This document shows positions 11,647 to 63,081 of a stretch of DNA of 64,000 nt, one piece after another. Made by a program: the position numbers and the translations under genes. This DNA comes from a virus, in the IMG/VR virus record IMGVR_UViG_3300045988_096313, positions 32,001-96,000 of that record, one strand, 5' to 3'. The first letter of the stretch is position 1. Every line of letters begins with the position of its first letter. Under the pieces are notes generated by a model. That model saw only the letters and a list, made by a program, of their open reading frames with translations. It had not been told where the DNA came from and did no database searches.

Positions 11647-11694
11647 AAACTTACAAGGATATTGAGCGATTATGAAAACTTACAAGGATATTGA
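11641..11694 (+). repeat. 29-bp-period tandem duplication of the fibre start region
   Basis: TTATGAAAACTTACAAGGATATTGA occurs at 11641..11665 and again at 11670..11694. The first copy gives a 9-codon mini-ORF overlapping the Dit stop. Confidence 0.9.
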
Positions 11695-14600: not shown

Positions 14601-17600
14601 ATTTGTATTATGACAATAAGACGGGCAAGGCATACCGCTTTGCCAAGGATGGCTCTACCTATAAGTGGATTATCATCACAGACACGGAACTGACCAAGGC
14701 ACTCGAAGATTCAAGCCAAGCACTCAAAGATGCAAAATCAAAGAGACGTATCTTCGGCTCTCAGCCAGTTCCACCATACGACGTGAACGATATGTGGGTC
14801 AATGCCACCTATCCTAGCGATGGAAGTACCTACAAGAATGAAATCTTGAAGTGTTCCACCTCCAAGGCAGAAGGTGAAGAGTTTGATATTGCCGATTGGA
14901 AATTGGCTAGCAAGTATACCGATGACACGAAGGCAGAGGAAGCAAAGAAAGCTGCTGAGAAGGCGCAAGCAGAGATTAAGGACACGCAAACTAATTTGAT
15001 TGCCCTCGGAACGACCGTATCTAACAATAAGAAGGCTTTCGATGCTTTTACCTCTGATGGCTACTTGGATAGTTCTGAGATTGCGGCTATTGCGCAGGAT
15101 AGCAAGCGTTTGGAGGACGATTATAATGCAGCCGTTGAGTCGTATAATAATGTTGTTGGCTCTAAGTTCTTGTTAGATAAGGATGGTAAAGAAACGACCT
15201 ATAAAACGGATTTGGTTTCAGCTAAGGCTACACTCGATAGCGCAAAAAATGAACTCATTACCTATCTTTCTGACATCGTAAGCAGATACAACGCTTCTGA
15301 TTCCAATGAAAAGGCTACCATCAAGGCGGCTGCGGCTCAGAAGTATACCAACTTCACCAATGCTTATAAGGCTTTCTACGACAAGCTGGGTGTGGCGAAC
15401 AACTATATCACGTCTAATCTGTTTGATGGTCTCAATACTAAGCTCATCACCAATATGGCTGGTCTTGAATACATCAAGGCTGCACTTGTTGATGGAGACA
15501 CAGTAGTCAAGGGTGGTCTTATCCTCTCTACATTGATAGCCTTACGTAACGATAAGGGAAATGTTACCGCAGGTATCAATGGAGCGGACACGAAGGAGAA
15601 TGGCATCGCCCTTTGGCTTGGTGGTAAGGCTATCGACAAGCAAGCCTCCACGACAACAGAGGAAGAGAAGAAAATTGCTGCCAAGTCCCTCCTACGCTTT
15701 GACGGAACTGGCTACTTCGCCAACGGCAACCTTTGGTGGGACGCAGATGGTACTTTGCACGCAGACCCGACATCTTTCATTATCAACAAGAATAATGTTG
15801 GTGTACAGCTTGCTCTCTTCGCACCTGTATGGAAGAGCGGAACGACCGACACAACAAAGCTGGCAAACGTATTATCTATCGACCCACAGAAGCCTTTCAC
15901 TCATCTTGACGTATCGGGTAACGTGACAACCGAAGGCAGCTTGAAAATTGGTGGAATCTATCTATCGTATGATAGTACCAACAATGCCCTTCGACTATCC
16001 AAGGATGCGGCAGGAAAGGAGGCTGCTAACTTCTATGCTCTTGGTGGTATTACCGCATACGGAAAAGGTGCAGGTACTTCTGGCGGTGGTGGCGGCTTGA
16101 ACGGCAGTGTGAAGAGTTATTCAAATGCCTTGAAACTTACATCAGAATCGCTGAATGAGATTGCCTCTGCCTACTCCATCAAGGCTCTTGATTCTCGTAT
16201 CTCCAGCCTAGAAGGTGGTAGTGCTACTGCTATTTCTGTCAGCGGTAGCGGTAATGCGGTTACGTCTGTCACCAAGAATGGTACTACTATCAGCGTAGTT
16301 AAAGGTGCAACGTTCCTCACCAGTCATCAGTCACTTGATGGTTACGTTAATGCAATATCTGTAAGTGGAAGTGGGAATGCTATCACGTCTGTATCTAAAA
16401 GCGGAAAGGGTATTACATTTACTAAAGGTGCTACATTTTTAACTTCTCACCAAAGTCTTGCTAACTATTATACCAAAAGTAGTGTAGATTCACTTCTTAG
16501 TGGTAAGTCGGCAACTAGTCATACACATAGTGTTAAGATTAACGGTGTTACTAAAACTATTGCAGCTACTGGTGGAACTGCTGTAGATTTAGGTACTTAT
16601 CTTACTTCTCATCAATCTTTAGCAAATTATGTTACTACTACAGATAGTAGACTTAGTGATAGTCGTTATCCTAAATTTGCTAATCGTACTTGGTATTTAG
16701 TAGGATACGATGCTTATATTGGCGACCATAATTTAAGTGGTTATTTTTGTGTTAAAAGTGCTAATGATAGTACTCGAGTTGGTATTTCATTATGGAATCG
16801 TGCTGAAAATGATTATGCTAATATATGGTTCGATAATACAAATATAAACCTTGATAAACAACTTGTTATGAATAACAAGCGTATTTGGATTCAAGGTGTC
16901 GGTACTGCTGGAGGTAATAATAATAGACTTACTCTTGTAGCAGGTATGCCTAGCGGATTAGCATATAATACTTCATGCCGTGGAACGATTCTTTATTCTA
17001 ACGGTATAGCATTTGCTGACCCATATAATGGTAAATCAAATAATGATAGTGGATGGATTAGACATTTAGAAACTTCTGGTAATAGTGGAACTTTAGAAAT
17101 AGCAGTAGGTGATGATGCTTCAAATGAAGAAATTCATTTCAGATGGTATGATACTACTCCAACTTCAGAACATATAAGATATGATATAACTGTTCCTAGA
17201 GCTACAGGTACTTTAGCTTTAACTAGTCAAATACCTACTTCTCTTAAATCTCCAAATTCATTATCTTGGAGTGGTTATAATACAGGTTCTTATGATGGTT
17301 CTAGTCCTAAAAGTTTTGTTATACCTAGTAATACTAATCAGTTAACTAATGGAGCTGGTTTTATAACTTCTAGTGCTAGCATTAGTGGTAATGCTGCTAC
17401 AGCAACAAATGCTGATAAACTTGATGGTATACACGCTAATGGTCTTCTCACTGCTATATCTAATTCCGATAAAGGTATTAGTATAACAGTTGGCGGAACT
17501 ACTAAAAGTGTTAGTAATATTAGTGTTAACTATGCTAGTAGTGCTGGAAATGCTGATACTGTTGATGGTTATCATGAAAGTTCATTTCTTAGATATAGAG

Positions 17601-19477
17601 GTGAGTATGGAGATGCATCTGTAACTAAAGATGGAGTTGGAGTTTATGGTTGGGCTCATACTAATGAGGGACATAATAATTTTCATGAAAGCTATGGTGA
17701 TATAATTAATATACAAGGCTATTCTACTTGGAGAACTAGATTTGATATAGGAACTAGTGGAAGAATTAGAATAATGCATGGTATAAATACTACTACTGCA
17801 ACTCAGGTTGGTTATCTTGCTTATTTACATGATAATGTGGCTTCTGCAACTAAACTTCAAACTGCTAGAACTATTTGGGGGCAAAGCTTTGATGGTACTG
17901 GTAATGTTAATGGAACTATTTACATAAACAATAATAATTCCTCTAACGGTGCTATACGATTAAACAATGATATAAATTCTAATGCTCGTATATCTGCTAT
18001 AGATAACCAAGTAATATTTAATACTGGTGCTGCTATTCGTTTTGGTGAAACTGCTTGGGATTGGAATCAGTGGGCTGGACTTAAATATAATCATTCCTAT
18101 AAAATTATTTATCTTGGTATAGCTGATGGTTCTGCATTTAATGCTAATAACGCACAAAGTGAAGGTACGCTTAGACTTGCTGGTATTAAAACTGTAACTC
18201 CTGATAGTGGAGCTAGAATTGGAAATACTGGTGGAGATTTATATCTAGGTAATAACAATAATAGTGCTTGGGTGAAAGTTCAAGACATGTGTAGTCAACA
18301 AAATAGTAATAATTGGCGTATATATCAAGCTGGTGGTGCTGTATTTAATACTCTTACAATTAATGGTGGCAGTACTTTTAATGGTGCAGTTAAAGTTAAC
18401 AATATGCTTACTGCTAAAGCTATAATGTTTACTACTACTGATGCAAATGCGTTTGGTACTGATATAAATAATTGGGATGGTAGTATTGGGGCTAATGTTA
18501 CTAATATGTTTAATGGTATTCCTCAGGACAATATACAAGTAGAATATTCAATGGATAATGGTGCTAGTTGGAATACATATCCTGGTAATCCAGAAAGTAG
18601 ATTTAATCTTGTAAATGATAATACTAGGGTATTTAATTATTATTTAGGGTGTAATAATATGCTTGGTGATACTGAGGCTGATAAACTTGCTCAAATAAAG
18701 AAAAATCAACTTAGGGTTACTGTTAAAATTCCTGCTGAAATATATCAAGAACTTAGTTGGATAAGTGTTGACGTAAATAACGGAGTTGATATAAAATGTC
18801 AAGTATACTTTGGAAGTAGTACTGGTGGTTATAAAGAATATGTTTCTAAAATAATGTTAGGATGGGCACACAAATGTGATATTTGTGTTGGTCCTTTAAA
18901 TGTAAATGTTGGTAATGATACATATCGTTATGTAAGATTAGTATTTAGTCATCCTAGTAATAATACTGCTTTACGTAATGGTATTGTTGCTAAAATTAGA
19001 GCTTTAGCTTTAACTAAATATATTTATAATAATGGCAGATATACATTTAGTACTACTGGTCATATATATGATTATGATGCTTATATGAATACTTATTTCC
19101 CTAATAGCATTCTTGCTGCTGGTGGAGTTACAGCTTATAAATCTTCTGATGTTCGTCTTAAAACTAACATTACTAAACTTAATTGTTTAAATGTTATTAA
19201 AAGTATTGGAGGTACTTATGAATTTGATTATCTTCGTGACCATAAACATAGTATTGGTTTTATTGCTCAACATGTAAATAATCCATTACTTAAAGATATA
19301 GTTGCTAAGGATAAAGATGGTTATCTAAAGATTAACTATTGGAGTCCTAAACTTATTAGTCTTGCTTTTGGTGCTTTAACTGAAATAGATGATGAAGTTG
19401 ATAGACTTAAAGCTAGAGTTAGAGAATTAGAAACTGAAGTTGAATATTTAAAAAATAAAGATTATGCCTTACAATAG
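11672..19477 (+). CDS. giant tail fibre / tail-tip receptor-binding protein (2601 aa) with C-terminal intramolecular chaperone
   Basis: Uninterrupted 7.8-kb ORF with fibre-type repeats (NADKLDGIHA, NADTVDGYHES, SHTHS, LTSHQSL). C-terminal SSDVRLKTNI...IGFIAQHV...coiled coil matches Peptidase_S74. Confidence 0.88.
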   Translation: MKTYKDIDIKYYDNDGNIHVRCSVPVTQDALVHYELMQSHYCKLSFKLTKPTYFLLGDFIDTPYGRFELIDLIKAKDNDTIGYSYEIQFDAYYRKLKNKILKYRPNTGSQEATFSLTSKISTHVEVIMKSLAYYAKLDKSYLYDPKFEGEGTDYTYVIDASVDANAAKLITYSNTSMLDAIANIAQTFECEWWFEGNILHFGTCENTNAIVDFRLNDNIVSMSSSQSQSTYANRVYAFGAARNLPSGYKNDADADITKDGVVEKRLMLPTSAECSDKNKQLLAENGFELKNGYIQVGGLHEDQYVEGVTTNDDIYPRNLIKTSKVTSYEKDVEDESTPEEGDYIKRTFYRVNSLTIVNDDGEKTGDMAFRKAYILSGKNLHIVFQSGSLNGMDFECEFNPDGVSEILRDNDGNPILKYGKEQINPKSQVFEIVANEDYGRFLPDTALHPKDGDTFVLYNWDSTKLGDTLVSAASNELLTDAIKNLKKSMIDPTTYTCTAEANYSFSQGRGNFHGVGDRVNLYNKGYDDSYRSSRIIGYELNLDIPYDGAKYYVGEKPSYSRLNAMESKIEELVYNGQSYLNGNGGGGKSIYIIKSYDKTAPTDYNVYSAKAVDEQRLNKLKDDTAKGTITWEKVQKLLSGLLIGNSNNENGGSWTPDAEGRSHLITDYLEVRMKAIFEELVINKTSTIGGKEIISPAGGVVAHKVEEVTVTYNNVSQKAYRCYFLAEQDGDKIDNDFVVEDQVRSESFNLNAGKYHKTGNHFFWRLAIGRDEEPVELEGKKYHYIDLSETDCATGSDVPMKGDVLSQCGNRSDPMRQSCLVFSSVDTYSPSISLYHGINSYSFANREYVEYGVNKQTNKAFFHVYGDMYFGDRPTSANNYEGDSYVKYDSDKKKVTIKGDLDIKSTYDGKTLDKYIADKSLDKNAVETIIKKSETIIDLQNQIDGAIETWFYDGVPTLKNEPAVGWDTDMMKNHLGDLYYDNKTGKAYRFAKDGSTYKWIIITDTELTKALEDSSQALKDAKSKRRIFGSQPVPPYDVNDMWVNATYPSDGSTYKNEILKCSTSKAEGEEFDIADWKLASKYTDDTKAEEAKKAAEKAQAEIKDTQTNLIALGTTVSNNKKAFDAFTSDGYLDSSEIAAIAQDSKRLEDDYNAAVESYNNVVGSKFLLDKDGKETTYKTDLVSAKATLDSAKNELITYLSDIVSRYNASDSNEKATIKAAAAQKYTNFTNAYKAFYDKLGVANNYITSNLFDGLNTKLITNMAGLEYIKAALVDGDTVVKGGLILSTLIALRNDKGNVTAGINGADTKENGIALWLGGKAIDKQASTTTEEEKKIAAKSLLRFDGTGYFANGNLWWDADGTLHADPTSFIINKNNVGVQLALFAPVWKSGTTDTTKLANVLSIDPQKPFTHLDVSGNVTTEGSLKIGGIYLSYDSTNNALRLSKDAAGKEAANFYALGGITAYGKGAGTSGGGGGLNGSVKSYSNALKLTSESLNEIASAYSIKALDSRISSLEGGSATAISVSGSGNAVTSVTKNGTTISVVKGATFLTSHQSLDGYVNAISVSGSGNAITSVSKSGKGITFTKGATFLTSHQSLANYYTKSSVDSLLSGKSATSHTHSVKINGVTKTIAATGGTAVDLGTYLTSHQSLANYVTTTDSRLSDSRYPKFANRTWYLVGYDAYIGDHNLSGYFCVKSANDSTRVGISLWNRAENDYANIWFDNTNINLDKQLVMNNKRIWIQGVGTAGGNNNRLTLVAGMPSGLAYNTSCRGTILYSNGIAFADPYNGKSNNDSGWIRHLETSGNSGTLEIAVGDDASNEEIHFRWYDTTPTSEHIRYDITVPRATGTLALTSQIPTSLKSPNSLSWSGYNTGSYDGSSPKSFVIPSNTNQLTNGAGFITSSASISGNAATATNADKLDGIHANGLLTAISNSDKGISITVGGTTKSVSNISVNYASSAGNADTVDGYHESSFLRYRGEYGDASVTKDGVGVYGWAHTNEGHNNFHESYGDIINIQGYSTWRTRFDIGTSGRIRIMHGINTTTATQVGYLAYLHDNVASATKLQTARTIWGQSFDGTGNVNGTIYINNNNSSNGAIRLNNDINSNARISAIDNQVIFNTGAAIRFGETAWDWNQWAGLKYNHSYKIIYLGIADGSAFNANNAQSEGTLRLAGIKTVTPDSGARIGNTGGDLYLGNNNNSAWVKVQDMCSQQNSNNWRIYQAGGAVFNTLTINGGSTFNGAVKVNNMLTAKAIMFTTTDANAFGTDINNWDGSIGANVTNMFNGIPQDNIQVEYSMDNGASWNTYPGNPESRFNLVNDNTRVFNYYLGCNNMLGDTEADKLAQIKKNQLRVTVKIPAEIYQELSWISVDVNNGVDIKCQVYFGSSTGGYKEYVSKIMLGWAHKCDICVGPLNVNVGNDTYRYVRLVFSHPSNNTALRNGIVAKIRALALTKYIYNNGRYTFSTTGHIYDYDAYMNTYFPNSILAAGGVTAYKSSDVRLKTNITKLNCLNVIKSIGGTYEFDYLRDHKHSIGFIAQHVNNPLLKDIVAKDKDGYLKINYWSPKLISLAFGALTEIDDEVDRLKARVRELETEVEYLKNKDYALQ
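16229..16474 (+). repeat. two tandem 123-nt (41-aa) repeats inside the fibre
   Basis: AISVSGSGNAVTSVTKNGTTISVVKGATFLTSHQSLDGYVN is followed by AISVSGSGNAITSVSKSGKGITFTKGATFLTSHQSLANYYT. A partial third copy (TYLTSHQSLANYV) lies near 16600. Confidence 0.9.
19142..19474 (+). other. Peptidase_S74 / endosialidase-type intramolecular chaperone auto-cleavage domain
   Basis: SSDVRLKTNITKL..YEFDY..HSIGFIAQHV..LKINY, then the coiled coil VDRLKARVRELETEVEYLK. Confidence 0.8.
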
Positions 19478-23553: not shown

Positions 23554-23576
23554 CAGTTGTTTTGGTGTGTCTCACC
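23554..23576 (-). promoter_or_regulatory. conserved hairpin-box copy 2
   Basis: The minus strand reads GGTGAGACACACC-AAAACAACTG, 12 nt downstream of the -7 box. Confidence 0.6.
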
Positions 23577-23588
23577 TCTTTAACAATG

Positions 23589-23596
23589 CAAAGATA
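23589..23596 (-). promoter_or_regulatory. -7 promoter box (TATCTTTG on minus strand)
   Basis: The plus strand reads CAAAGATA. Confidence 0.55.
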
Positions 23597-23644
23597 CGAC
23601 AAAATGGATATTCTTGCAAATAAATTAATGCAAATTTTGAATCG

Positions 23645-28534: not shown

Positions 28535-28557
28535 CAGTTTTTGTGGTGTGTCTCACC
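28535..28557 (-). promoter_or_regulatory. conserved hairpin-box copy 3
   Basis: The minus strand reads GGTGAGACACACC-ACAAAAACTG and ends 7 nt before ATG 28527. Confidence 0.6.
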
Positions 28558-31750: not shown

Positions 31751-32344
31751 ATGGAACTCAGATTCGATTGGTGGCGTTGGCTCGTTACCATATTGGTAGG
31801 TTTCTTCATCATGCTGATGATGTACGGATGCCGGACAACAAGATATGTAGAAGTGGAAAAGGTGGTGCGAGACACTACTACTTATGCTCATTGGGACTCA
31901 ATCGTCAATGAAAGGGTTAAGCTCATTCGGGATAGCTTACTATCTTATCATTGGGAGCAGACCGAAAAGCATGTTAAGGACTCCACTTACATCAAGGATG
32001 ATGTCAAGACAAGGGTAGATGAGAGTGGTAAGGTGCTAGGTAAGGATTCTACTCATATAGAGATTAGATACAGGGACAGCAAGGAACTATCCAAGTTTCG
32101 TGATAGCCTTATTCATTATAAGGAGATAGCAGAGCGAGCGAGTATATATAAGGCTCAGAGGGATAGCCTAAACAGAGAATTGAGTATCGCCCAGACCAAA
32201 AAGGAATATATTGAGAAAGACTTGGAGGGATGGGATTTGTTCTATTGGAAATTCGGTATGATTTCCTTTTGGGTCGTTTCCTTGATGCTGGTTACAATGA
32301 TTTTCTTTCTCACGGTAAAATATAAGAAAAAGTTATTTTATTAG
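31751..32344 (+). CDS. unimolecular-spanin-like protein (N-terminal signal/lipobox-like, C-terminal TM)
   Basis: N-terminus WWRWLVTILVGFFIMLMMYGC (non-canonical lipobox), a charged helical middle and a C-terminal TM MISFWVVSLMLVTMIFFLTV. Start moved past the promoter. Confidence 0.4.
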   Translation: MELRFDWWRWLVTILVGFFIMLMMYGCRTTRYVEVEKVVRDTTTYAHWDSIVNERVKLIRDSLLSYHWEQTEKHVKDSTYIKDDVKTRVDESGKVLGKDSTHIEIRYRDSKELSKFRDSLIHYKEIAERASIYKAQRDSLNRELSIAQTKKEYIEKDLEGWDLFYWKFGMISFWVVSLMLVTMIFFLTVKYKKKLFY

Positions 32345-34981: not shown

Positions 34982-35332
34982 ATGAAAGAGTTAAGTTTTG
35001 ATAAGCTATACGTAAATTTTAGCAATTTATATTGTGAGTATCGTAGTAGAAAGCAATTCTTGAAGTGGTTGAAATCCTCAAAGAATCTTTCTGAAGAGTT
35101 GTTTGAAGTAACGCCAAGTGAAGGTGGTTCGTTTGATGTTGTGTTGTCTTTTGAAGAGATAAAGGATGTATTCCCGATTATGGAGAATTCATTGCCTAAG
35201 TACGAAAACGATATAAAGCAAGTTCTTTTGGCTATAAAGGAAATGGGACAGCTTGAAGTTGCAAAGATATGGCATGAGGATGATTGGGGTGATGGCTTTG
35301 TAGAGGATTTTTGTAAAACACATGATATTTAA
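34982..35332 (+). CDS. hypothetical protein (116 aa)
   Basis: Intact ORF whose stop overlaps the MTase start. Confidence 0.5.
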   Translation: MKELSFDKLYVNFSNLYCEYRSRKQFLKWLKSSKNLSEELFEVTPSEGGSFDVVLSFEEIKDVFPIMENSLPKYENDIKQVLLAIKEMGQLEVAKIWHEDDWGDGFVEDFCKTHDI

Positions 35333-36381
35333 TGAGGATACGGACGTTTGAACTTTGTGCCGGATATGACTCTCAACTGATGGCTTTAGAGCGGTTGAAG
35401 AAGAAATATTCTGATTTCGATTACGAGTGCATCGGCTGGTCGGAGATAGAGCCAAGTGCAATAGCCTTGCATAATGCTTGTTTTCCTAGTCTATCCTGCA
35501 AGAATTTCGGTGATATGACAAAGATAGATTGGAGCAAGGTTGAAGACTTTGACTTGCTGACATATTCAACACCTTGCCAGTCCATTTCGCAAGCCGGAAA
35601 GCAGAAAGGAATAGAGGAGGGGAGTAACACCCGTTCCTCTATCCTTTGGCTTACAAGAAACGCCATTATTACCACGAGACCGAAATACCTCTTGATGGAG
35701 AATGTTGAGGCTTTGGTTCAAACAAAGTTCATCGGGTTCTTCAATAAGTGGCGTAAGGAGTTGGAATCCTATGGATATGTCAACTATGCTAAGGTGATAA
35801 ATGCAGCCGATTGTGGTGTTCCTCAGAACAGAAAGCGTGTCTTTATGCTCTCTATACGAAATGATGGAGAAAAGACCGATTATCACTTTCCGAGAAAGAT
35901 AAAGCTGGAGAAACACTTAGTTGATGTCTTGGAGGAAAATGTGGACGAGAAGTACTTTTTGAGCGATGCCCTGCTATGTAAAGAGAAGTTTGTGTCAAAT
36001 GAAAGGAAAGAGCCTATGAGTGCAGCTATAAGAACTCGTTCTGAGGGGAAGTGGATAAAAGGCGAAATGCATAGTCCAAAGGTCGAGCTTGGAAAGAATA
36101 TAGCCAATACCATTACATCTGCGAGCAAGGACTCCTTGGTTGTGCTTGGAGAGACAAGGTTGCGCATTAGGCGTTTGACTCCGAGAGAACTCTTCCGCTT
36201 AATGAACGTTGACGAAGAATACATAGACAAGATGCTTGAAAGTGGAGTGTCGAAGTCAAGTCTTCAAAAGGCAGCTGGAAATTCGATTGTCGTAGCTTGC
36301 ATGGAAAGGATATTAGAGGAACTTTGGTTTAATAGCAAAGAGTTCGACGTTTCCGATGACGGACAATTATATATATTTTAG
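35332..36381 (+). CDS. DNA (cytosine-5)-methyltransferase
   Basis: FELCAGYDS (motif I-like), TYSTPCQSISQAGK (PCQ, motif IV), LLMENV (motif VI), QNRKRVF (motif VIII), GNSIVV (motif X). Confidence 0.85.
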   Translation: MRIRTFELCAGYDSQLMALERLKKKYSDFDYECIGWSEIEPSAIALHNACFPSLSCKNFGDMTKIDWSKVEDFDLLTYSTPCQSISQAGKQKGIEEGSNTRSSILWLTRNAIITTRPKYLLMENVEALVQTKFIGFFNKWRKELESYGYVNYAKVINAADCGVPQNRKRVFMLSIRNDGEKTDYHFPRKIKLEKHLVDVLEENVDEKYFLSDALLCKEKFVSNERKEPMSAAIRTRSEGKWIKGEMHSPKVELGKNIANTITSASKDSLVVLGETRLRIRRLTPRELFRLMNVDEEYIDKMLESGVSKSSLQKAAGNSIVVACMERILEELWFNSKEFDVSDDGQLYIF

Positions 36382-36401
36382 CATATGTTTATAAGGGTAG
36401 C

Positions 36402-36509
36402 CATATTATCGTGGATTGCAAGCGGTTCGATTCTGACATCTTTTTCCGCAAGGATGCTTGTCAATGGATTCAGATGCAACCTAAAGAAATGCTATCAATG
36501 GTAGCGTAA
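36402..36509 (+). pseudogene. 3' fragment of an LVPLTK-family gene
   Basis: Encodes ..IIVDCKRFDSDIFFRKDACQWIQMQPKEMLSMVA*. The last 81 nt differ at only 3 positions from the 3' end of 62782..63081 (reverse complement). No N-terminal part is present. Confidence 0.75.
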
Positions 36510-36576
36510 AGAAACAAGGTATAATTTTTCGGTGAAAGTTCTTGCCAATTCCCTTGCATATATGAAGAAATTTTCG

Positions 36577-36584
36577 TATCTTTG
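36577..36584 (+). promoter_or_regulatory. -7 promoter box TATCTTTG upstream of tnpB
   Basis: Matches TAnnTTTG. The upstream TTGCATAT resembles the promoter modules at 39.06 kb and 44.24 kb. Confidence 0.55.
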
Positions 36585-36596
36585 CAAGTGGATTTC

Positions 36597-36621
36597 GGTG
36601 AGACACACCTTTCAAAAACTG
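36597..36621 (+). promoter_or_regulatory. conserved hairpin-box copy 4
   Basis: GGTGAGACACACC-TTTCAAAAACTG. Lies 12 nt after the -7 box and ends 16 nt before the tnpB ATG. Confidence 0.6.
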
Positions 36622-36637
36622 TTTAAAATTTAGGGAT

Positions 36638-37774
36638 ATGATTTCATACAAGTATAAGCTATATCGGACAAAGAAGACGAAGCATTTGGATAAGATGCTC
36701 CGAGAGGCTTGCTATGTTTGGAATCATGCGCTTGCCTTGCAGATGAGGTACTATAAGCTGTACCACAAGTATATTCCAAAATTTACGATGTTTAAGCATT
36801 TCTCTAAGCGATATAAGCCAATATTGCTTAACGGTCATACCATTAGAGAAATTTTAGAGCGTTTGGATATAGCTTACCAACGTTTCTTCAAACACGATGC
36901 GAAGCGTCCACCGAAATTCAAAAAGGCATCTGAGTTTTGCTCATTTGTTTTTACTGATTGTGGTTATTCTCTTAGTGGAAATGAGTTGGCGATAAACAAG
37001 ATTAAGAAGTCCTTCAAGTTCTTTCTGAGCCGTTCCTACGATGGCAAGGTCAAGAGGGTGTCAGTTAAGCGCAACAAGTTGGGCGAGTACTTCATTATCC
37101 TTTGCTTAGATAAAGAAGCCAGACCTTACGGAAAGTCACACGATGGTGCATCCGTTGGCATCGACTTTGGATTGAAGAAGTACCTGACTTTGAGCGATGG
37201 GCGTGAGATTGATAATCCTCAGTTCCTTAAAGCTGACTTGCAGGAGCTTAGGCGCAGGTCTCGCAACTTCTCGAAGTGCAAGAAGGGCAGCAACAACCGC
37301 AAACGAAAGAAGCTGGAGTTGGAGCGATTGTATCGAAACATCGTGAACAAGCGTTCCGATTTTCAGTGGAAGTTGGCGCATGAGTTGTGCAAGCGTTATG
37401 ACTTGATTTGCTTGGAGGATTTGAACTTGGAGGGAATGATAAAGCGTTGGGGACGCAAGATGTCTGACTTGGCTCATGGCGATTTCGTTGTGAAGTTGGA
37501 GCACGTAGCGAAGAAGTATGGCGTTCAGGTTCATAAGATAGACCGCTTCTTCCCTTCGAGCCGTCTCTGTACCTGTGGTTACAAGAATGATAAGCTGTCA
37601 TTGAGTGATAGGATTTGGACTTGTCCTAGTTGTGGTGCAGTTCATCCTAGAGACCTCTTCGCAGCTGAGAATATACTTCGGCAGGGCATTGCCGAATTGG
37701 GGAGTGGTAGTAAGTCACCCAAGCACTCGCAAGGGCGCAGCCACGTTAGCCACCCAACAATTCCTTGCAAATAA
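36638..37774 (+). CDS. tnpB: TnpB (OrfB) RNA-guided RuvC nuclease
   Basis: Typical N-terminus MISYKYKLYRTKKT. RuvC triad candidates VGIDFGLKK (D), ICLEDLNL (E), HPRDLFAAENI (D). Zinc ribbon CTCG...CPSCG. Confidence 0.85.
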   Translation: MISYKYKLYRTKKTKHLDKMLREACYVWNHALALQMRYYKLYHKYIPKFTMFKHFSKRYKPILLNGHTIREILERLDIAYQRFFKHDAKRPPKFKKASEFCSFVFTDCGYSLSGNELAINKIKKSFKFFLSRSYDGKVKRVSVKRNKLGEYFIILCLDKEARPYGKSHDGASVGIDFGLKKYLTLSDGREIDNPQFLKADLQELRRRSRNFSKCKKGSNNRKRKKLELERLYRNIVNKRSDFQWKLAHELCKRYDLICLEDLNLEGMIKRWGRKMSDLAHGDFVVKLEHVAKKYGVQVHKIDRFFPSSRLCTCGYKNDKLSLSDRIWTCPSCGAVHPRDLFAAENILRQGIAELGSGSKSPKHSQGRSHVSHPTIPCK

Positions 37775-37785
37775 GCAAGGAAGTA
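37560..37785 (+). ncRNA. predicted omega/reRNA scaffold region of TnpB (position inferred, not demonstrated)
   Basis: In characterised TnpB systems the guide RNA scaffold overlaps the tnpB 3' end. An 8-bp hairpin TTCCTTGC/GCAAGGAA (37761..37782) spans the stop codon. Confidence 0.3.
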
Positions 37786-38087
37786 TGCCAACAGCTATGT
37801 TTATTTTAAATATTGATGATATGATGTTTTTGAATAATAAAGAGAAAAAGGAGAAAGCAAATGCTATCTCATACAAGATAGAGGAGTACATCTGGGGACG
37901 TAAGGATTTCGTTACCGACTGCCCCTATGGAGAGAAAGGCAGATATACCAACGCCATTAATAAGGTTGGTGATTTGGGATGTAACACTTGCAAATGGCAG
38001 GTAAGGCATAGCCCAAGAGCGCAAGTTGTGACGTGCTCCCATCCAAAGGAGGAGAATTGCGAGGTTAAGAAACAGTTTAAGGATTAA
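37785..38087 (+). CDS. hypothetical Cys-containing protein (100 aa)
   Basis: Start moved to ATG 37785, 3 nt after the hairpin. The longer ORF-track version overlaps tnpB out of frame. Confidence 0.45.
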   Translation: MPTAMFILNIDDMMFLNNKEKKEKANAISYKIEEYIWGRKDFVTDCPYGEKGRYTNAINKVGDLGCNTCKWQVRHSPRAQVVTCSHPKEENCEVKKQFKD

Positions 38088-38928: not shown

Positions 38929-39084
38929 ACTTTGATTAATATGGTTACAAAAACTTTCAATTGTTAGAACGCATAAAATGCAAAAATCTACTAAATGAAT
39001 GGTTGTATTAATGTTTAAAGATTAAAATACTTTAAACGTGTACATAAACACATTAAATAATTTGCATATTTCGATATTAGTTTG

Positions 39085-39092
39085 TATCTTTG
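39085..39092 (+). promoter_or_regulatory. -7 promoter box TATCTTTG with TTTG 24 nt upstream
   Basis: Matches TAnnTTTG. A candidate -33 TTTG lies at 39061. Confidence 0.6.
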
Positions 39093-39129
39093 CACTGTAA
39101 TTAAGAGACAAAGATTACTAATTTGAAAA

Positions 39130-39152
39130 GGTGAGACACACCATAAAAACTG
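39130..39152 (+). promoter_or_regulatory. conserved hairpin-box copy 6
   Basis: GGTGAGACACACC-ATAAAAACTG, ending 6 nt before ATG 39159. Confidence 0.6.
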
Positions 39153-42593: not shown

Positions 42594-42600
42594 AATCGGT

Positions 42601-42759
42601 ATGAAAGAAACTTGTTGCTTAGAAGATACGCTTTACAACACAAAGCGTTACTTCACTTTGGAAAATGGTGTAGTATCAGGAACGGAACTTTCGCAGGAAG
42701 ACTTTAATGTGTTCCTCGACCTTGCAAGTCGTCTTGGTTATAATGTAGTGAAACTATGA
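42601..42759 (+). CDS. hypothetical small protein (52 aa)
   Basis: Hand-translated as MKETCCLEDTLYNTKRYFTLENG.... ATGA overlap with the next small ORF. Confidence 0.35.
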   Translation: MKETCCLEDTLYNTKRYFTLENGVVSGTELSQEDFNVFLDLASRLGYNVVKL

Positions 42760-42917
42760 CAAGGCGAGTAAACAAGGATTGTCCGTTCACAGCAGAAGAA
42801 CTGGATGGGTTCAGAGCTGCTTTGTATAGTGTGAATACATCGTTTCTCTGCTGCAATGCAGCTCCGGTAGATTGGGCAGCAGGATGGCAGCGGTATGATA
42901 TAAGGAAGACGAGGTAG
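42756..42917 (+). CDS. hypothetical small protein (53 aa)
   Basis: Hand-translated as MTRRVNKDCPFTAEELDGFRAALYSVNTSFLCCNAAPVDWAAGWQRYDIRKTR. Confidence 0.35.
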   Translation: MTRRVNKDCPFTAEELDGFRAALYSVNTSFLCCNAAPVDWAAGWQRYDIRKTR

Positions 42918-43364
42918 GATTCCATAATCTACAAATACCCACGTGTCAAAGCCGTGTGATGCCTTGCGTGGGGGCGGGATTGTAAACTTAGGAGTCGCAC
43001 GGCTTTATTTGGAAGTTTCATAACTACAATAGCCTATCGCTAATGGTTGTTCCCTTGGGCAGGGAGATAGTTAATACCGCATCGTAAGATGTGAACACTT
43101 GAAATTTGTCGGCAATCATTGGCAAATGCCTATTAGTCAGCGGCAGAAACCCTTGGGCAAGGTTGGAAATGGTGCAAAGTCTTCAAATTCGCATCTGTCG
43201 CTGACAAACGGATGAGTGGCATTGGCAACTGAAAGCAATGCGACCCTCGCAAACTTGGAGCGGATTTTCTGATTAAATATTCCGTGTACCAGGTCACTGG
43301 GGAGGTGTTGACATCAACAAGGGTTTAAATCCCTTGTCATCCACTAATTTTAAAAGGTTAAATT
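42918..43364 (+). ncRNA. ORF-free 447-nt GC-richer region with multiple helices and two degenerate roughly 100-nt repeats (candidate structured RNA or cis-acting DNA site)
   Basis: 9-bp helix 42948-56/42998-43006. 11-bp helix 43136-46/43195-43205. GUAA-loop hairpin 43078-93. Two hairpins share the loop TTGGGCA on different stems (TCCC/GGGA at 43051-65; AACC/GGTT at 43148-64). CATTGGCAA occurs twice. 6-bp helix 43219-24/43236-41. Confidence 0.45.
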
Positions 43365-43592
43365 ATGAATGAATATTGTAAGAATTTGATTTCAAATGGT
43401 GTTCCTAGCTGGATAGTAGAGGAGGCTTATAAATTTACAATTGAGCCTTTGAAATCAACAGAAGGCTTGGTAGAAATTGATAAGGAAAATAGTGAGCTAT
43501 ATAGAAATGTCATTATCGCAGCCTACATTGAGGGTGCTAGTGCTACATTGGAAAAAGTGCAAAGATATTATGGCAGTGAGGAACATAGTTAG
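43365..43592 (+). CDS. hypothetical protein (75 aa)
   Basis: First ORF after the non-coding region. Confidence 0.45.
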   Translation: MNEYCKNLISNGVPSWIVEEAYKFTIEPLKSTEGLVEIDKENSELYRNVIIAAYIEGASATLEKVQRYYGSEEHS

Positions 43593-44167: not shown

Positions 44168-44261
44168 GTTAACGTCAGCAAATTATTCGTTTATATTATT
44201 ATAGAGTGTTAAAGGTTATAAGAAATACATTAAATAACTTGCATATTTCGGGATTTATTCG

Positions 44262-44269
44262 TATCTTTG
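44262..44269 (+). promoter_or_regulatory. -7 promoter box TATCTTTG
   Basis: Matches TAnnTTTG. Confidence 0.6.
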
Positions 44270-44305
44270 CATCGTAGTTAAGAAACAAAGGTTACTAATT
44301 TAAAA

Positions 44306-44328
44306 GGTGAGACACACCTTAAAAACTG
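44306..44328 (+). promoter_or_regulatory. conserved hairpin-box copy 7
   Basis: GGTGAGACACACC-TTAAAAACTG, ending 10 nt before GTG 44339. Confidence 0.6.
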
Positions 44329-44338
44329 TAAGAAGAAA

Positions 44339-57373: not shown

Positions 57374-57697
57374 CTATTTCGTCTTTGAAGAAATTTCCAG
57401 CTTATCAACAATAGAACGAAGTTCTTGCAAGGAAGATGCGACAAATGTATCTCCATTTTCTGAGCGGACAAATGCGCAGAAGTTAAACCTTGGTGAACAC
57501 TCGCAGTAGATGTCTTCTGGGTCAACAAATAGTTGCCAAGTTGGAACACCAAGAAGTTGTGCCATTTCTTCCAATCTTGCTTTTGTAGGGTTGCCATTGA
57601 TAAGGTTTGTAATGGCTTGCTTTGAAATCCCCAACATTTGGGCAAACTCTGTTTTTGAGATACCCTTTTGCTTTAAAATACTTTCTAGTCTATACAT
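57374..57697 (-). CDS. XRE/cI-Cro-type HTH repressor-like protein
   Basis: LKQKGISKTEFAQMLGISKQAITNLINGNPT. Divergently transcribed from the 57979 operon. Confidence 0.75.
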   Translation of the reverse strand: MYRLESILKQKGISKTEFAQMLGISKQAITNLINGNPTKARLEEMAQLLGVPTWQLFVDPEDIYCECSPRFNFCAFVRSENGDTFVASSLQELRSIVDKLEISSKTK

Positions 57698-57737
57698 ATT
57701 ATACCTTATTATATATTAATACAAACTTATTCGTATG

Positions 57738-57745
57738 CAAAGATA
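57738..57745 (-). promoter_or_regulatory. -7 promoter box (TATCTTTG on minus strand)
   Basis: The plus strand reads CAAAGATA. Confidence 0.55.
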
Positions 57746-57760
57746 CGGCAAAAACCATAA

Positions 57761-57780
57761 AGTACAAAGAAAATAGTACT
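57761..57780. promoter_or_regulatory. operator-like repeat O1 (AGTACAAAGAAAATAGTACT)
   Basis: 20-mer with inverted arms AGTAC/GTACT. Lies 16-35 nt upstream of the minus-strand -7 box. Confidence 0.55.
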
Positions 57781-57834
57781 AATAAATGTAAATAAGAGAG
57801 TAGTAAAAACATCTTTTTATAAATAATAGTTAAA

Positions 57835-57854
57835 AGTACAAAGAAAATGGTACT
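57835..57854. promoter_or_regulatory. operator-like repeat O2 (AGTACAAAGAAAATGGTACT)
   Basis: 19 of 20 positions identical to O1. Lies 29-48 nt upstream of the plus-strand -7 box. Confidence 0.55.
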
Positions 57855-57882
57855 TTTATTTGGTGGATTACAAAAATGTTTG

Positions 57883-57890
57883 TATCTTTG
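57883..57890 (+). promoter_or_regulatory. -7 promoter box TATCTTTG
   Basis: Matches TAnnTTTG. Confidence 0.55.
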
Positions 57891-57947
57891 CAATGTCTTT
57901 AAGAGATAAAGGCTTTAAAGTTTAACTATTAATTGCTGTTATGCAGC

Positions 57948-57961
57948 CGAGTCGGCACTCG
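57948..57961 (+). promoter_or_regulatory. variant leader hairpin CGAGT-CGGC-ACTCG followed by TAAAACGGT
   Basis: 5-bp stem and 4-nt loop, ending 17 nt before ATG 57979. The same 24-mer recurs inverted at 63821..63844. Confidence 0.5.
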
Positions 57962-57978
57962 TAAAACGGTTTGAGGAT

Positions 57979-58317
57979 ATGACTACTTCAATTAAGAACA
58001 AGATGAGAAAGGTAATGCAGTTGGCACATAGAGCCTATCAGTTGAAATCAGCTTATATGAGTTGGGCAGAATGCTTGAAGCAAGCTTGGCAGGTAATCAA
58101 GCTGAAGGCTCGCATGAAGAAGCAGGTCGTTGAGTTCTACTTTCAGAAGATGAATGGTGAGGTAAGACAAGCCTTTGGTACTCTCCTTCAGAGCCACATT
58201 GACTATACTCCAAATGGTACAGGGCATGCAGCATCAAGAGATTGCATCCGCTATTGGGATGAAGCAAAGGGCGCATGGAGACAATTCAAGGCTTACAACT
58301 TCTTGCGAGTTGCATAA
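57979..58317 (+). CDS. hypothetical protein (112 aa), paralog of 63475..63810
   Basis: Roughly 75-80% amino-acid identity (by-eye estimate) to the inverted copy. Confidence 0.6.
   Translation: MTTSIKNKMRKVMQLAHRAYQLKSAYMSWAECLKQAWQVIKLKARMKKQVVEFYFQKMNGEVRQAFGTLLQSHIDYTPNGTGHAASRDCIRYWDEAKGAWRQFKAYNFLRVA
58027..58161 (+). repeat. 135-bp perfect inverted repeat, arm 1
   Basis: Identical to the reverse complement of 63628..63762 (checked base by base). Confidence 0.95.
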
Positions 58318-58356
58318 AGATATATTCACGTTCTAAGGTGTTTGGCGAGGCTTAAT

Positions 58357-58386
58357 AGGGGGTGTGCCTTTAAACACCCCTTTAGT
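58357..58386 (+). terminator. intrinsic terminator candidate
   Basis: GGGGTGT/ACACCCC stem followed by TTTAGTTT. Confidence 0.55.
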
Positions 58387-58411
58387 TTAGGACTTTTAAA
58401 GTATTTGAGAT

Positions 58412-58660
58412 ATGGAGACAATTGCTAAGTGTTTGAAAGAAGTGTTCTACAAAGGGCATCATATTACCAAGGTGGAGGACGTATTCGGTCAGATTGCCGT
58501 TCGCATTGATAATGTTGTTGAACCGGACTATGCTAGCATAGCAGAGGCGAAACGTGTAATCAATGGTAAAGCCCCAAAGTGGTTTAATGATGGTTATATG
58601 TGGGACGAAGCCAGCAAGAAAGTTGTAAAAGACCCTAACGCTTTCCGATGGGAGGAGTAA
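58412..58660 (+). CDS. hypothetical protein (82 aa)
   Basis: Intact ORF. Confidence 0.45.
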   Translation: METIAKCLKEVFYKGHHITKVEDVFGQIAVRIDNVVEPDYASIAEAKRVINGKAPKWFNDGYMWDEASKKVVKDPNAFRWEE

Positions 58661-58959
58661 GAAAACATAAGGTAAAGAACTTAAAACAATTGGTTATGGA
58701 AAAGTTTATTGATGGCAGTTATGTATTCGAGAAAACAAATGAGTTTCCGGATGGCTACGAAATTTGGGCGATTGGTCGAAGAAATTTCGAGCACAAAGGC
58801 TACGTACCATTGTGTGAGGTTGATGAGAACTACAACGTCAAAAGAGATACCTTGAAGGCTTTGAAAGTCAAGGATGAAGCATTTGCTTTGGCTTTGCTCT
58901 ATGAAGCCGTTAAACGAGGTGTCAACAAGAAGAAGTATAACAAAATGTTAAGTGCATAA
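58648..58959 (+). CDS. hypothetical protein (103 aa)
   Basis: Overlaps the upstream gene by 13 nt. An alternative start lies at 58696. Confidence 0.45.
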   Translation: MGGVRKHKVKNLKQLVMEKFIDGSYVFEKTNEFPDGYEIWAIGRRNFEHKGYVPLCEVDENYNVKRDTLKALKVKDEAFALALLYEAVKRGVNKKKYNKMLSA

Positions 58960-58963
58960 GAAC

Positions 58964-59260
58964 ATGGATGAGAATTTCTTGAATGTGCTCTATATCGAGC
59001 ACACGGACAAAATAGGCGTTCTAAAGGACGATAAGAACGAAAGGGTATCGGTTGTTCGTGGGACAGACAAAACGCTTGTAGAACGCAAAAGAGAGGGCAA
59101 AACGTACCTTCTTGTACCATTAACAAAGAACCATACTTTCAAGTGCAATGGCGATAGCTTGGAGGTTGATGGCAAGATTATCCCTAGCAAGGTATTTTTC
59201 CGTAAGGATGGTGCTCAGTGGATTGAGATTGACAAAGAAACGTTATTTAAGGTTGCGTAA
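58964..59260 (+). CDS. hypothetical protein, LVPLTK-family paralog (98 aa)
   Basis: MDENFLNVLYIEHTDKIGVL...LVPLTKNHTFKCNGDSLEVDGKIIPSKVFFRKDGAQWIEI aligns with the 62782..63081 product. Confidence 0.55.
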   Translation: MDENFLNVLYIEHTDKIGVLKDDKNERVSVVRGTDKTLVERKREGKTYLLVPLTKNHTFKCNGDSLEVDGKIIPSKVFFRKDGAQWIEIDKETLFKVA

Positions 59261-60079: not shown

Positions 60080-60364
60080 ATGAATATACTAGACTATTAT
60101 GAGGTTGTCACCTCAAAGATTTTCAAGTTGGAAAGCATGAACGAGGGGCTTGTATTGATAGCACCGGAGCAGGAGGTAGATGGAGTCCGTTCCTTGATGG
60201 TGGGATTATATGTTCCTGAGCATGAACGATACAAGATATATACTTTCCGTTCATCTATGAACGAGGGCGAACTTGGCGACAAGTACAAGGCGATGGTCGG
60301 CACGATGAATGTACTTAAACCGGATTGGGACAGAATTAGAAAGAAAAGACGGAAGAGGATTTAA
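60080..60364 (+). CDS. hypothetical protein (94 aa)
   Basis: Intact ORF, convergent with the RHH gene (4-nt overlap). Confidence 0.45.
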   Translation: MNILDYYEVVTSKIFKLESMNEGLVLIAPEQEVDGVRSLMVGLYVPEHERYKIYTFRSSMNEGELGDKYKAMVGTMNVLKPDWDRIRKKRRKRI

Positions 60365-62781: not shown

Positions 62782-63081
62782 TTATGCTACCATTGATAGC
62801 ATTTCTTTTGATTGCATCTGAATCCATTGACAAGCATCCTTGCGGAAAAAGATGTCAGAATCGAGCTGCTTGCCATCCACAATGATGTAATTACCCTTAT
62901 ACTCAAATTTGTGGTTTCGGGTCAATGGGACTAGCAGATAGACCGCCATGTCCTTTTTATCCAACACCAGTGTAAGGTCAGTACCCAATATATGTGAAAT
63001 AGTGTTGTCTTTGTCGTCACACAATACACCAATCTTCTCATCGTAGCTCACGTAGAGAGCATCCATTAAATTCTTATCCAT
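62782..63081 (-). CDS. hypothetical protein, LVPLTK-family paralog (99 aa)
   Basis: Start moved to ATG 63081 (MDKNLMDALYVSY) by alignment to 58964..59260. The ORF-track N-terminus covers box copy 12. Confidence 0.55.
   Translation of the reverse strand: MDKNLMDALYVSYDEKIGVLCDDKDNTISHILGTDLTLVLDKKDMAVYLLVPLTRNHKFEYKGNYIIVDGKQLDSDIFFRKDACQWIQMQSKEMLSMVA

Follow-up and report, generated by a model that had tools for sequence, protein, structure and literature searches.

Most natural tnpB genes lie without an adjacent transposase gene, and how such solo TnpB elements persist and spread is an open question. TnpB nucleases, omega RNAs, solo tnpB genes and tnpB genes in phage genomes are all already known. 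In the insertion sequence (IS) IS608, the right end closes with TCAA placed 10 nt 3′ of the hairpin foot and the target is TTAC (PMC3201880). In ISDra2 the guide consists of ∼16 nt of flanking DNA (Karvelis et al., 2021, PMC8612924) and TnpB cleavage was mapped at 20-21 bp (PMC8612924). Spread that is independent of the Y1 transposase TnpA and dependent on TnpB has been reported in multicopy plasmids, and non-restorative homing has been proposed for phages (PMC11870625; PMC13565253). Here a 64,000-nt stretch of viral DNA was analyzed (IMG/VR record IMGVR_UViG_3300045988_096313, positions 32,001 to 96,000; hereafter the window), which carries an intact tnpB gene for an RNA-guided RuvC nuclease of 378 amino acids (aa) at 36638..37774 (+ strand). 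The element, in a gut Prevotella/Segatella-type phage, derives from an IS608-like (IS200/IS605 family) element and has lost tnpA. The best reading of the locus, which we regard as probable though by no means secure, is TnpA-independent, TnpB-driven (non-restorative) homing.

Insertion site and shared cassette

The insertion point was located in the last five codons of the phage gene for a C-5 cytosine DNA methylase (35332..36381, + strand; 349 aa; Pfam DNA_methylase, 3.6e-60), the 3′ end of which is interrupted by the insertion. Relatives of this methylase with 91-94% aa identity were fetched from IMG/VR. The 3′ end was uninterrupted in 80/80 of them, as well as in 14 contigs matching the exact target 18-mer and in GenBank MT836190, so that the empty site which the initial annotation had proposed to seek in related phages was found. 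The empty site reads ..GATGATGG(T/C)|CAGCTATG(T/C)(T/C)TATTTTAA, with the next gene directly after it. In the window the right end of the element abuts CAGCTATGTTTATTTTAA, and the orphaned original end of the methylase gene, CAG CTA TGT TTA TTT TAA (QLCLF*), was found at 37792..37809 (+ strand), identical in 14 IMG/VR contigs and MT836190.

The right end is of IS608 type (37761..37791, + strand) and reads TTCCTTGC-AAATAA-GCAAGGAA-GTATGCCAA, ending at 37791. An 8-bp hairpin (TTCCTTGC/GCAAGGAA, 37761-37782; DNA fold z = -3.35) overlaps the tnpB stop codon, as had been annotated, and is followed by GTATGCCAA in the same geometry as in IS608. The cleavage tetranucleotide is CCAA in the window and TCAA in most copies. 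All phage copies share this right end, with covarying stems, with Prevotella bivia and five further copies from Bacteroidales. Its terminus, AGTATGYCAA, is conserved even in the bacterial copies and is followed by unrelated sequence in ∼15 lineages; the boundary is therefore exact to the base. A guide that had been judged unreadable for lack of this boundary can consequently be read, and application of the ISDra2 rule to the first bases after the right end gives a predicted 16-nt guide, CAGCTATGTTTATTTT (37792..37807, + strand). The conserved terminus also contains the ATG at 37785, which had been mistaken for the start of a gene 3 nt beyond tnpB. The downstream gene (88 aa, no family match) was instead placed at 37821..38087 (+ strand), its start being taken from the empty-site relatives, in which this gene begins at an ATGATG equivalent to 37821.

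Compared base by base, the predicted guide equals the insert-free allele of the relatives. Over the 16 nt that follow the junction, 20 loci agree with the guide throughout and 66 differ from it at one position (the locus sets overlap and some contigs were counted twice). In the window itself, the element's own flank is the sole perfect match and stands without the context of a target-adjacent motif (TAM).

Seventeen contigs, independently assembled from Hadza and other cohorts, encode the exact TnpB of the window, in each case at the methylase site and with tnpB 256 nt after the methylase gene (17/17). Over a block of ∼1.5 kb (∼36298-37816) every cassette-bearing contig has 0-3 differences from the window. 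The flanks of the block differ by 5-14% and resemble those of empty-site phages, with 250-nt flanking bins falling to 72-93% identity. In L326 (L-numbers denote individual contig loci compared with the window) the flanks are 96% identical to those of the empty-site phage L167 and 86-92% identical to those of the window. Left crossovers were placed at 36274-36305 by three-way comparison, just outside the divergent methylase end and at the first available homology. Right crossovers fall at 37801-37816 (L330), at 37814-37882 (L326) or further out, and the shortest right tract ends 10-25 nt beyond the right end, about where a TnpB cut is expected. Of the shared block, 190 nt at the left and at least 25 nt at the right are not IS DNA. 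Identity profiles and crossover positions together demonstrate that homologous recombination, with very short conversion tracts, brought the block into several backbones. Transposition was not the route, because part of the block is not IS DNA and its edges are found in the flanking sequence. A domesticated role, which had been offered as one possibility, does not fit a site that is empty in 80/80 fetched relatives, a cassette in diverged backbones and sister copies at 15 or more sites.

Beyond the element itself, the insert brings to the empty site a replacement gene end, a spacer and part of another gene, and is not a simple TAM-adjacent insertion. A canonical pair of ends with a target signature had been named as the mark of an ordinary recent insertion; a canonical right end and an empty site are indeed present, but the left end is decayed, with foreign cargo on the left. 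The outermost part of this cargo is a divergent replacement methylase 3′ end of 51 nt (..WFNSKEFDVSDDGQLYIF; 36331..36381, + strand), where the relatives (80/80) read ..WFSESNVKVADDGQLCLF; at the protein level ..DDGQLYIF* replaces ..DDGQLCLF*. It is identical across all cassette-bearing contigs. The replacement end has 4/16 mismatches to the guide and is preceded by A, not T/C, and for these reasons would not be recognized by the element's own guide. Its source was sought with an exact 20-mer and a back-translated peptide pattern in IMG/VR, without a match; BLAST and tblastn searches of all fetched loci likewise gave no match, and GenBank phages gave nothing new.

The replacement end is followed by an 11-nt spacer, CATATGTTTAT (36382..36392, + strand), the TATGTTTAT of which recurs in the target at 37796-37804. 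The two copies of TATGTTTAT stand at 36384-36392 (left junction AGCATATGTTTAT|AAGGG) and 37796-37804 (CAGCTATGTTTAT). This repeat looks like an imperfect duplication of 13 nt of the target, a feature that IS200/IS605 elements do not produce. Next comes a dead 3′ fragment of a small phage gene, here called gene X (36393..36509, + strand; 39 codons and a stop), which derives from an earlier insertion site. Over 95 nt it is 94.7% identical to the 3′ end of full gene X, and 13 nt separate it from the left-end remnant of the element. A full-length gene X paralog lies at 62782..63081 (- strand); directly downstream, the L083-type tnpB insertion site is present in empty form. Full gene X stands directly upstream of tnpB in L004, L005, L007, L019, L026, L074 and L083.

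Two cassette-bearing ENA contigs, L326 and L329, have the methylase split into open reading frames (ORFs) of 181 and 154 aa. In L329 a NUMOD4/HNH homing-endonuclease gene lies directly upstream of the methylase, and the locus is a hot spot for selfish nucleases.

Nuclease, predicted omega RNA and left end

The TnpB protein was matched by Pfam OrfB_IS605 (8.5e-26) and Cas12f1-like_TNB (2e-17) and by NCBIfam guided_TnpB (2e-70). Its RuvC D/E/D residues (GIDFG, LEDLN, HPRDLFAAEN) are in register with those of ISDra2 TnpB (8EXA/8H1J; E = 1e-44), and the intact catalytic triad that had been annotated was confirmed by this alignment. The same alignment corrected the first zinc motif, given earlier as CxxC: the four zinc-binding cysteines form CxC...CxxC, the first pair being CxC (LCTCG). 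The protein scores 235 bits with the IS200_TnpB model versus 134 bits with IS607_TnpB. An IS607-type element was rejected on this score and on the presence of a Y1 TnpA in the canonical relative. An IStron was rejected after a search of 36300-37950 gave no Rfam match at E ≤ 1, and a TldR-type domesticated TnpB after all of the catalytic residues D, E and D were found to be kept.

The GC content of tnpB is 0.43-0.49 versus 0.37-0.41 for the surroundings, in agreement with its earlier description as GC-richer. Data on the wider tnpB family were drawn from the closest 80 of 353 IMG/VR relatives, which have 87-93% aa identity with the window copy. The gene is full-length in 71/80 of these fetched copies. 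The ratio of nonsynonymous to synonymous substitution rates (dN/dS) between phage copies is 0.13 (codons 1-300, dS 0.54), and by this measure TnpB is evidently under purifying selection. A tblastn search with the closest canonical TnpA, that of P. bivia, gave a best E of 3.6 in the 64-kb window, upholding the reported lack of TnpA there, and was without a match in the phage loci over 2.5-4 kb either side of tnpB or the methylase.

The last ∼115 nt before the right-end terminus are conserved far beyond coding need in 14 relatives of 58-93% aa identity. In an alignment of these 14, two helices (helix 1, 37677-84/37689-96; helix 2, 37701-08/37740-47) have 98% of cells paired and 6 compensatory pairs; none of 500 shuffles was as good, and slid controls gave 29-49%. 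Across codons 301-378, which overlap this region, dS drops from 0.54 to 0.19. On the strength of covariation and reduced dS, an omega RNA is predicted to be encoded at ∼37.62-37.79 kb, within the 37.56-37.80 kb anticipated for it by the initial annotation. The predicted scaffold occupies 37618..37791 (+ strand) and comprises helices 1 and 2, the terminal hairpin (37761-82) and a candidate long-range pairing of 37618-27 with 37779-89. No Rfam family was matched by the omega RNA.

A genome scan identified a TnpB 72% identical to that of the window in Prevotella bivia DSM 20514, within a complete element that is present twice. In this element a divergent 133-aa Y1 tnpA lies beside tnpB, the left flank is CTTAC| and the right end reads ..AAGAAT-hairpin-AGTATGTCAA|. 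At L182 (P. bivia DSM 20514, NZ_JH660659.1 40207-47334) two complete inverted copies of the parental element, each with tnpA and tnpB, bracket a gene of 262 aa; the pair adjoins a 750-aa ORF and may be a composite arrangement in a prophage. In bacterial relatives without TnpA (L183, L185, L189) a complete left end fits into ∼105-125 nt before the ATG. The parts of these left ends are, in order, TTAC/TTAT, 17-21 nt, a strong 8-bp hairpin with a TTTA loop, ATGAAAGC, a -33 TTGC, a -7 TATCTTTG and the ATG.

In the window a left-end remnant and 5′ untranslated region occupy 36523..36637 (+ strand), lack a subterminal hairpin and travel with tnpB at many different sites. These ∼115 nt are homologous to the inner, promoter part of the bacterial left end, and there had been room for such an end, contrary to the first impression. 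A TGAAAG block (36533-36538), a -33 TTG (36554-36556) and a -7 TATCTTTG (36577-36584) were recognized, and the columns invariant between phage and bacterial left ends are TGAAAG, TTGC and TAT.TTTG. As judged from this alignment of the phage copies with the inner bacterial left end, the putative -33/-7 promoter is the IS family's own left-end promoter and was not captured from the phage. We take it to be of the usual Bacteroidota TTG/TAnnTTTG type.

The hairpin of the left end is absent from the phage copies (DNA fold z = +0.67 and +0.13 versus -4.4 and -3.8 in bacteria); hairpin, guide tetranucleotide and TTAC boundary have all been lost from the phage element. Three candidates for a surviving structure were rejected. 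A hairpin hidden in the promoter module was not supported by a local alignment of the left module with the right end (score 23; shuffle mean 16.9, maximum 26). Two possible left-end stems, TTCTT/AAGAA and ATTTCC/GGAA, are weak, show no covariation and are disrupted in L076. A manual alignment in which the phage copies had an AAAG guide like that of IS608 and a boundary TTA(C/T/G) was contradicted by MAFFT. With neither TnpA nor the TnpA-binding hairpin of the left end, the element cannot undergo canonical transposition. The description of tnpB as immobilized thus holds for the lack of TnpA and of the left-end hairpin, but not for the element as a whole, the cassette being present in several backbones through recombination.

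Between the -7 element and the ATG the phage copies have gained a leader box, GGTGAGACACACC..AAAAACTG (36597-36621), which is missing from the bacterial relatives and ends 16 nt before the tnpB ATG, as had been described. The pattern GGTGAGACACACC-N2-4-AAAAACTG occurs in 12 copies in the window, 11 of them elsewhere than at tnpB, versus 1.2 expected. The -7 box GTATCTTTGCA occurs in 22 copies versus 1.9 expected, and a leader box usually follows one of them at 10-40 nt. The other leader boxes lie at 273-300, 23565-23597(-), 28546-28556(-), 38907, 39084-39150, 44261-44330, 55680, 56570, 61483(-), 62761(-) and 63124(-). Of the earlier proposal that tnpB is wired to a phage promoter and box, the part concerning the box stands, since it is phage-specific, whereas the promoter belongs to the IS family. 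Expression of tnpB within the phage programme, also proposed, agrees with the succession of a predicted promoter and the phage's own leader box.

The leader-box arrangement is reminiscent of T4-like phages, where shuffled cassettes are flanked by promoter-plus-stem-loop modules. In L077 (IMGVR_UViG_3300045988_093521) tnpB is joined to a resident promoter module corresponding to window position 44273, and its right flank corresponds to window position 60233. L077 is a recombinant of the left-end promoter with a phage promoter module, and a rearrangement of ∼16 kb is implied.

Relocated copies and the motif at empty sites

Related tnpB copies were found at 15 or more sites, which on the window backbone map to 32.4, 38.5, 38.8, 43.1, 60.2 and 62.7 kb, a tRNA gene and others. 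By sequence the copies group according to site (98.3% nt identity within sites versus 88.6% between them), and pairs in the same genome are only 86-91% alike, from which it follows that relocation is rare and old. Every relocation has an exact right end and an irregular left side. Relocated copies bring with them between 25 nt and ∼1.6 kb of the DNA at their previous site, in many cases gene X together with a WYL_2 gene and a helix-turn-helix (HTH) gene, and 6-244 nt of the target are deleted on the left. At one tRNA gene three nested right-end junctions stand behind the same left flank (L014, L031, L001). From junctions of this kind, the right end seems to have been re-joined repeatedly to nearby sequence, each time changing the guide. 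At the 43-kb site 3-nt variants of the junction were observed (TCAA|ACC, TCAT-CAA|ACC and TCAA-CAA|ACC in L028, L032 and L069).

The motif K-R-Y stands directly 5′ of the guide match in 13/13 true empty sites (P ∼2.5e-12, uncorrected for the choice of class). The 4-mers at the empty sites are TGGT (four times), (A/T)GGT, GGGT, GGGC, TGGC, ATGC (twice), ATAC (twice) and GTGT. K-R-Y, a relaxed TTAC, could be the TAM of this TnpB clade, kept because only TAM-flanked junctions home; alternatively, the motif could be a trace left by the enzyme responsible for the junctions. At the positions aligned to ISDra2 K76/F77/Q80, the window protein reads ..NGHTIREI.. and that of P. bivia ..HSQTVQEI... These ISDra2 residues presumably contact the TAM, and that the phage TnpB differs here from the Prevotella protein, which uses TTAC, hints that its TAM may have changed.

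Off-target repair was rejected as the origin of new junctions: the guides are unrelated, and each matches its own empty site from base 1. Left junctions were also considered as TAM sites (pseudo-left-end excision), a candidate that only 1-2/6 fit. A metagenome scan with a loose junction pattern returned 120 chance matches, none with right-end context. At the 43-kb site tnpB is 99.1% identical and the flanks 97-98%, a difference too small for a sweep test. This site lies in an ORF-poor, locally GC-rich stretch of ∼880 nt (42594-43476), in which tnpB replaces 164 nt (43125-43288) in 44 related contigs. The stretch has no Rfam match, its single-sequence folds are not significant (z-score -0.79), and hence it gives no evidence of structured RNA.

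Elsewhere in the window, inverted paralogous cassettes of a Cro/C1-type HTH gene, a WYL_2 gene, small genes and gene X lie at 57374-59260(+) and 63816-62782(-) and bracket 59.3-62.8 kb; in L004, L019 and L026 such a cassette is found elsewhere, fused to tnpB. The sole RNA match at gathering level in the window was Rfam DUF805b (RF02914; 60738-60770(-); 40.3 bits versus a gathering score of 35.6). At 11672-19477(+) there is one ORF of 2601 aa.

Readings of the locus and comparison with known systems

Under TnpA-independent homing, TnpB would be made during infection from the left-end-derived promoter behind the phage leader box and would bind the omega RNA, the 3′ ∼16 nt of which (CAGCTATGTTTATTTT) would be transcribed from the flank. 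A co-infecting phage carrying ..GATGATGG(T/C)|CAGCTATGTTTATTTTAA would be cut ∼15-21 bp into the target. Repair of the break from the cassette-bearing genome would copy in the whole block, a non-restorative homing that would amount to a transposase-free gene drive. TnpB would itself make the break, its TAM would accept TGG(T/C), and the divergent methylase end may be a rescue or immunity copy. Engineered home-and-rescue drives carry a recoded rescue segment, to which the divergent end is likened by analogy only. Homing or competition with related phages had been among the roles first suggested for TnpB, and is favored by a guide equal to the insert-free allele and by the occurrence of the block in diverged backbones.

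A fuller version of this reading describes a natural home-and-rescue phage gene drive, in which a transposase-less cassette with a guide-immune gene end would also undergo re-targeting anchored at its right end. We consider this version possible but doubtful. Its re-targeting part, prompted by the nested junctions in the tRNA gene and by the 15 or more sites with 25 nt-1.6 kb of left cargo, may consist of the right end being re-joined now and then to new K-R-Y-flanked sequence, which would automatically yield a new guide in a primitive process like spacer acquisition.

Several observations weigh against homing. Bacterial relatives insert 3′ of TTAC/TTAT and the empty site here has TGGT/TGGC, so that the empty sites would go uncut if the TAM were still TTAY. 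In ∼70% of the empty-site loci scanned there is a mismatch at guide position 9 or 10, which is seed territory. Evolution of resistance at the target was sought and rejected: diversity of the TAM codon and 18 nt is unremarkable, 110/343 windows being as high in a rough count of ungapped columns. The splitting of the methylase in the cassette-bearing L326 and L329 weakens the need for a rescue end. Ordinary recombination with selection or drift can also yield an identical insert in mosaic backbones, and the first joining of the right end to a new flank is left unexplained by homing.

The last but one of these points leads to the chief rival, that the cassette is a passive passenger, spread by ordinary recombination between co-infecting phages with a mild benefit or by hitch-hiking, while TnpB makes no break and is retained by selection for another selfish or unknown role. 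The backbones are certainly mosaic, with identity profiles that switch repeatedly and modules at different places in relatives; the TAM mismatch with the bacterial relatives and the seed mismatches would make cutting inefficient, and target diversity is not in excess. However, the conversion tracts are very short and in several backbones stay close to the heterology at either side, differences within the 1.5-kb block number 0-3 versus 5-14% in its flanks, strong purifying selection on the nuclease and omega RNA scaffold needs a function, the guide matches exactly the insert-free allele, and a conserved motif lies 5′ of 13/13 targets. We therefore rate a passive passenger as rather unlikely. 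A function other than homing is offered by an exclusion weapon that destroys relatives without converting them, or by a TldR-like regulator that acts on the downstream gene via its own flank. Putative expression through the phage's own leader box and a guide that matches relatives would suit either, and homing and killing are compatible in phage homing endonucleases (PMC13565253). Entry of the cassette into other backbones is conversion and not killing alone, though, the catalytic D/E/D is intact in contrast to TldR, and the sole perfect match in the own genome is the flank itself, which lacks a TAM-like context; both roles are improbable.

Mobilization in trans as an ordinary non-autonomous IS, with a host IS608-family TnpA making independent insertions at the same site, would account for the canonical right end and the existence of an empty site; a tnpA-carrying relative is present in Prevotella, and K-R-Y, as a relaxed TTAC, could reflect pairing with a left-end guide sequence. 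What makes this very improbable is the missing TnpA-binding left-end hairpin, the non-IS DNA (190 nt left, at least 25 nt right) in a block whose edges vary between backbones, and the irregular left junctions of the sister copies with their 25 nt-1.6 kb of cargo and 6-244 nt of deleted target. No tnpA was found in the window or in the phage loci over 2.5-4 kb either side of tnpB or the methylase. A chimera produced by mis-joining through a repeated tnpB is suggested by the multi-copy state of tnpB in this phage group and by two GenBank contigs that break at the tnpB edges. It is refuted, and an assembly artefact excluded, because the same arrangement and junctions recur on 17 independently assembled contigs from different assemblies and assemblers; its probability is negligible.

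The locus is a concrete natural case that points to transposase-independent spread by recombination between co-infecting phages. With guide, candidate TAM, donor allele and recipient allele all in hand, homing is a testable reading. If true, it would provide an RNA-guided gene drive among gut phages, a natural rescue design and a route for re-programming TnpB guides, and would be relevant to how CRISPR-Cas12 arose, to how phages compete in the gut and to compact nucleases for genome editing that use unusual TAMs. The literature yielded no paper on this phage group and none with data on phage-to-phage homing by TnpB. Novelty lies in the combination of features: a decayed left end rewired with a phage leader, direct population-genomic evidence for transposase-independent spread, a guide-immune substitute gene end in the cassette, and a right-end-anchored relocation that changes the guide.

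Among insertion sequences, the closest likeness is to IS608/ISHp608 of Helicobacter pylori and the P. bivia element, which have the same kind of right end with GAAT/CAAT, a subterminal hairpin, ∼10 nt and a terminal TCAA (PMC3201880). The IS608-like element of P. bivia further has a 72% identical TnpB and a homologous -33/-7 promoter inside its left end. Unlike these elements, the phage element has no tnpA and no left-end hairpin, has added a leader box and carries foreign cargo on its left; its targets are preceded by K-R-Y (mostly TGGT) and theirs by TTAC.

The ISDra2 TnpB-reRNA system (Karvelis et al., 2021; Meers et al., 2023) is alike in its RuvC D/E/D nuclease, the phage protein aligning at 1e-44 to the solved structure. 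As in ISDra2, the predicted omega RNA extends over the 3′ end of tnpB and the right end, its guide is taken from the flanking DNA, and the site predicted to be targeted is the one without the insert. In the restorative homing of ISDra2 the element is restored on the sister chromosome after excision by TnpA. The phage element differs in having no TnpA, and its target would be a co-infecting phage genome, so that the element would gain new hosts and do more than escape loss. TnpB spread in plasmids is similar in that copying into homologous insert-free molecules is based on recombination and needs no TnpA; the plasmid case is experimental and concerns a complete IS605, whereas the phage case is population-genomic and concerns a degenerate element with a replacement gene end. 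TldR, a nuclease-dead, RNA-guided repressor of prophages, likewise is a TnpB homologue carried by phages, has an omega-like RNA and lacks a transposase. In contrast to TldR, the phage TnpB has an intact triad, its guide matches the insertion site and not a promoter, and its presence and position are polymorphic. Beyond TnpB systems, the free-standing homing endonucleases of T-even phages (SegF, MobE and others), known for intronless homing and marker exclusion, offer a parallel: the nuclease gene lies between conserved phage genes, its product cleaves the corresponding allele in a co-infecting relative, the gene is then copied there along with short co-converted flanks, and sequence divergence protects the donor allele. 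The difference is that recognition by the phage TnpB would depend on an RNA guide and a TAM, with the target set automatically by the flank.

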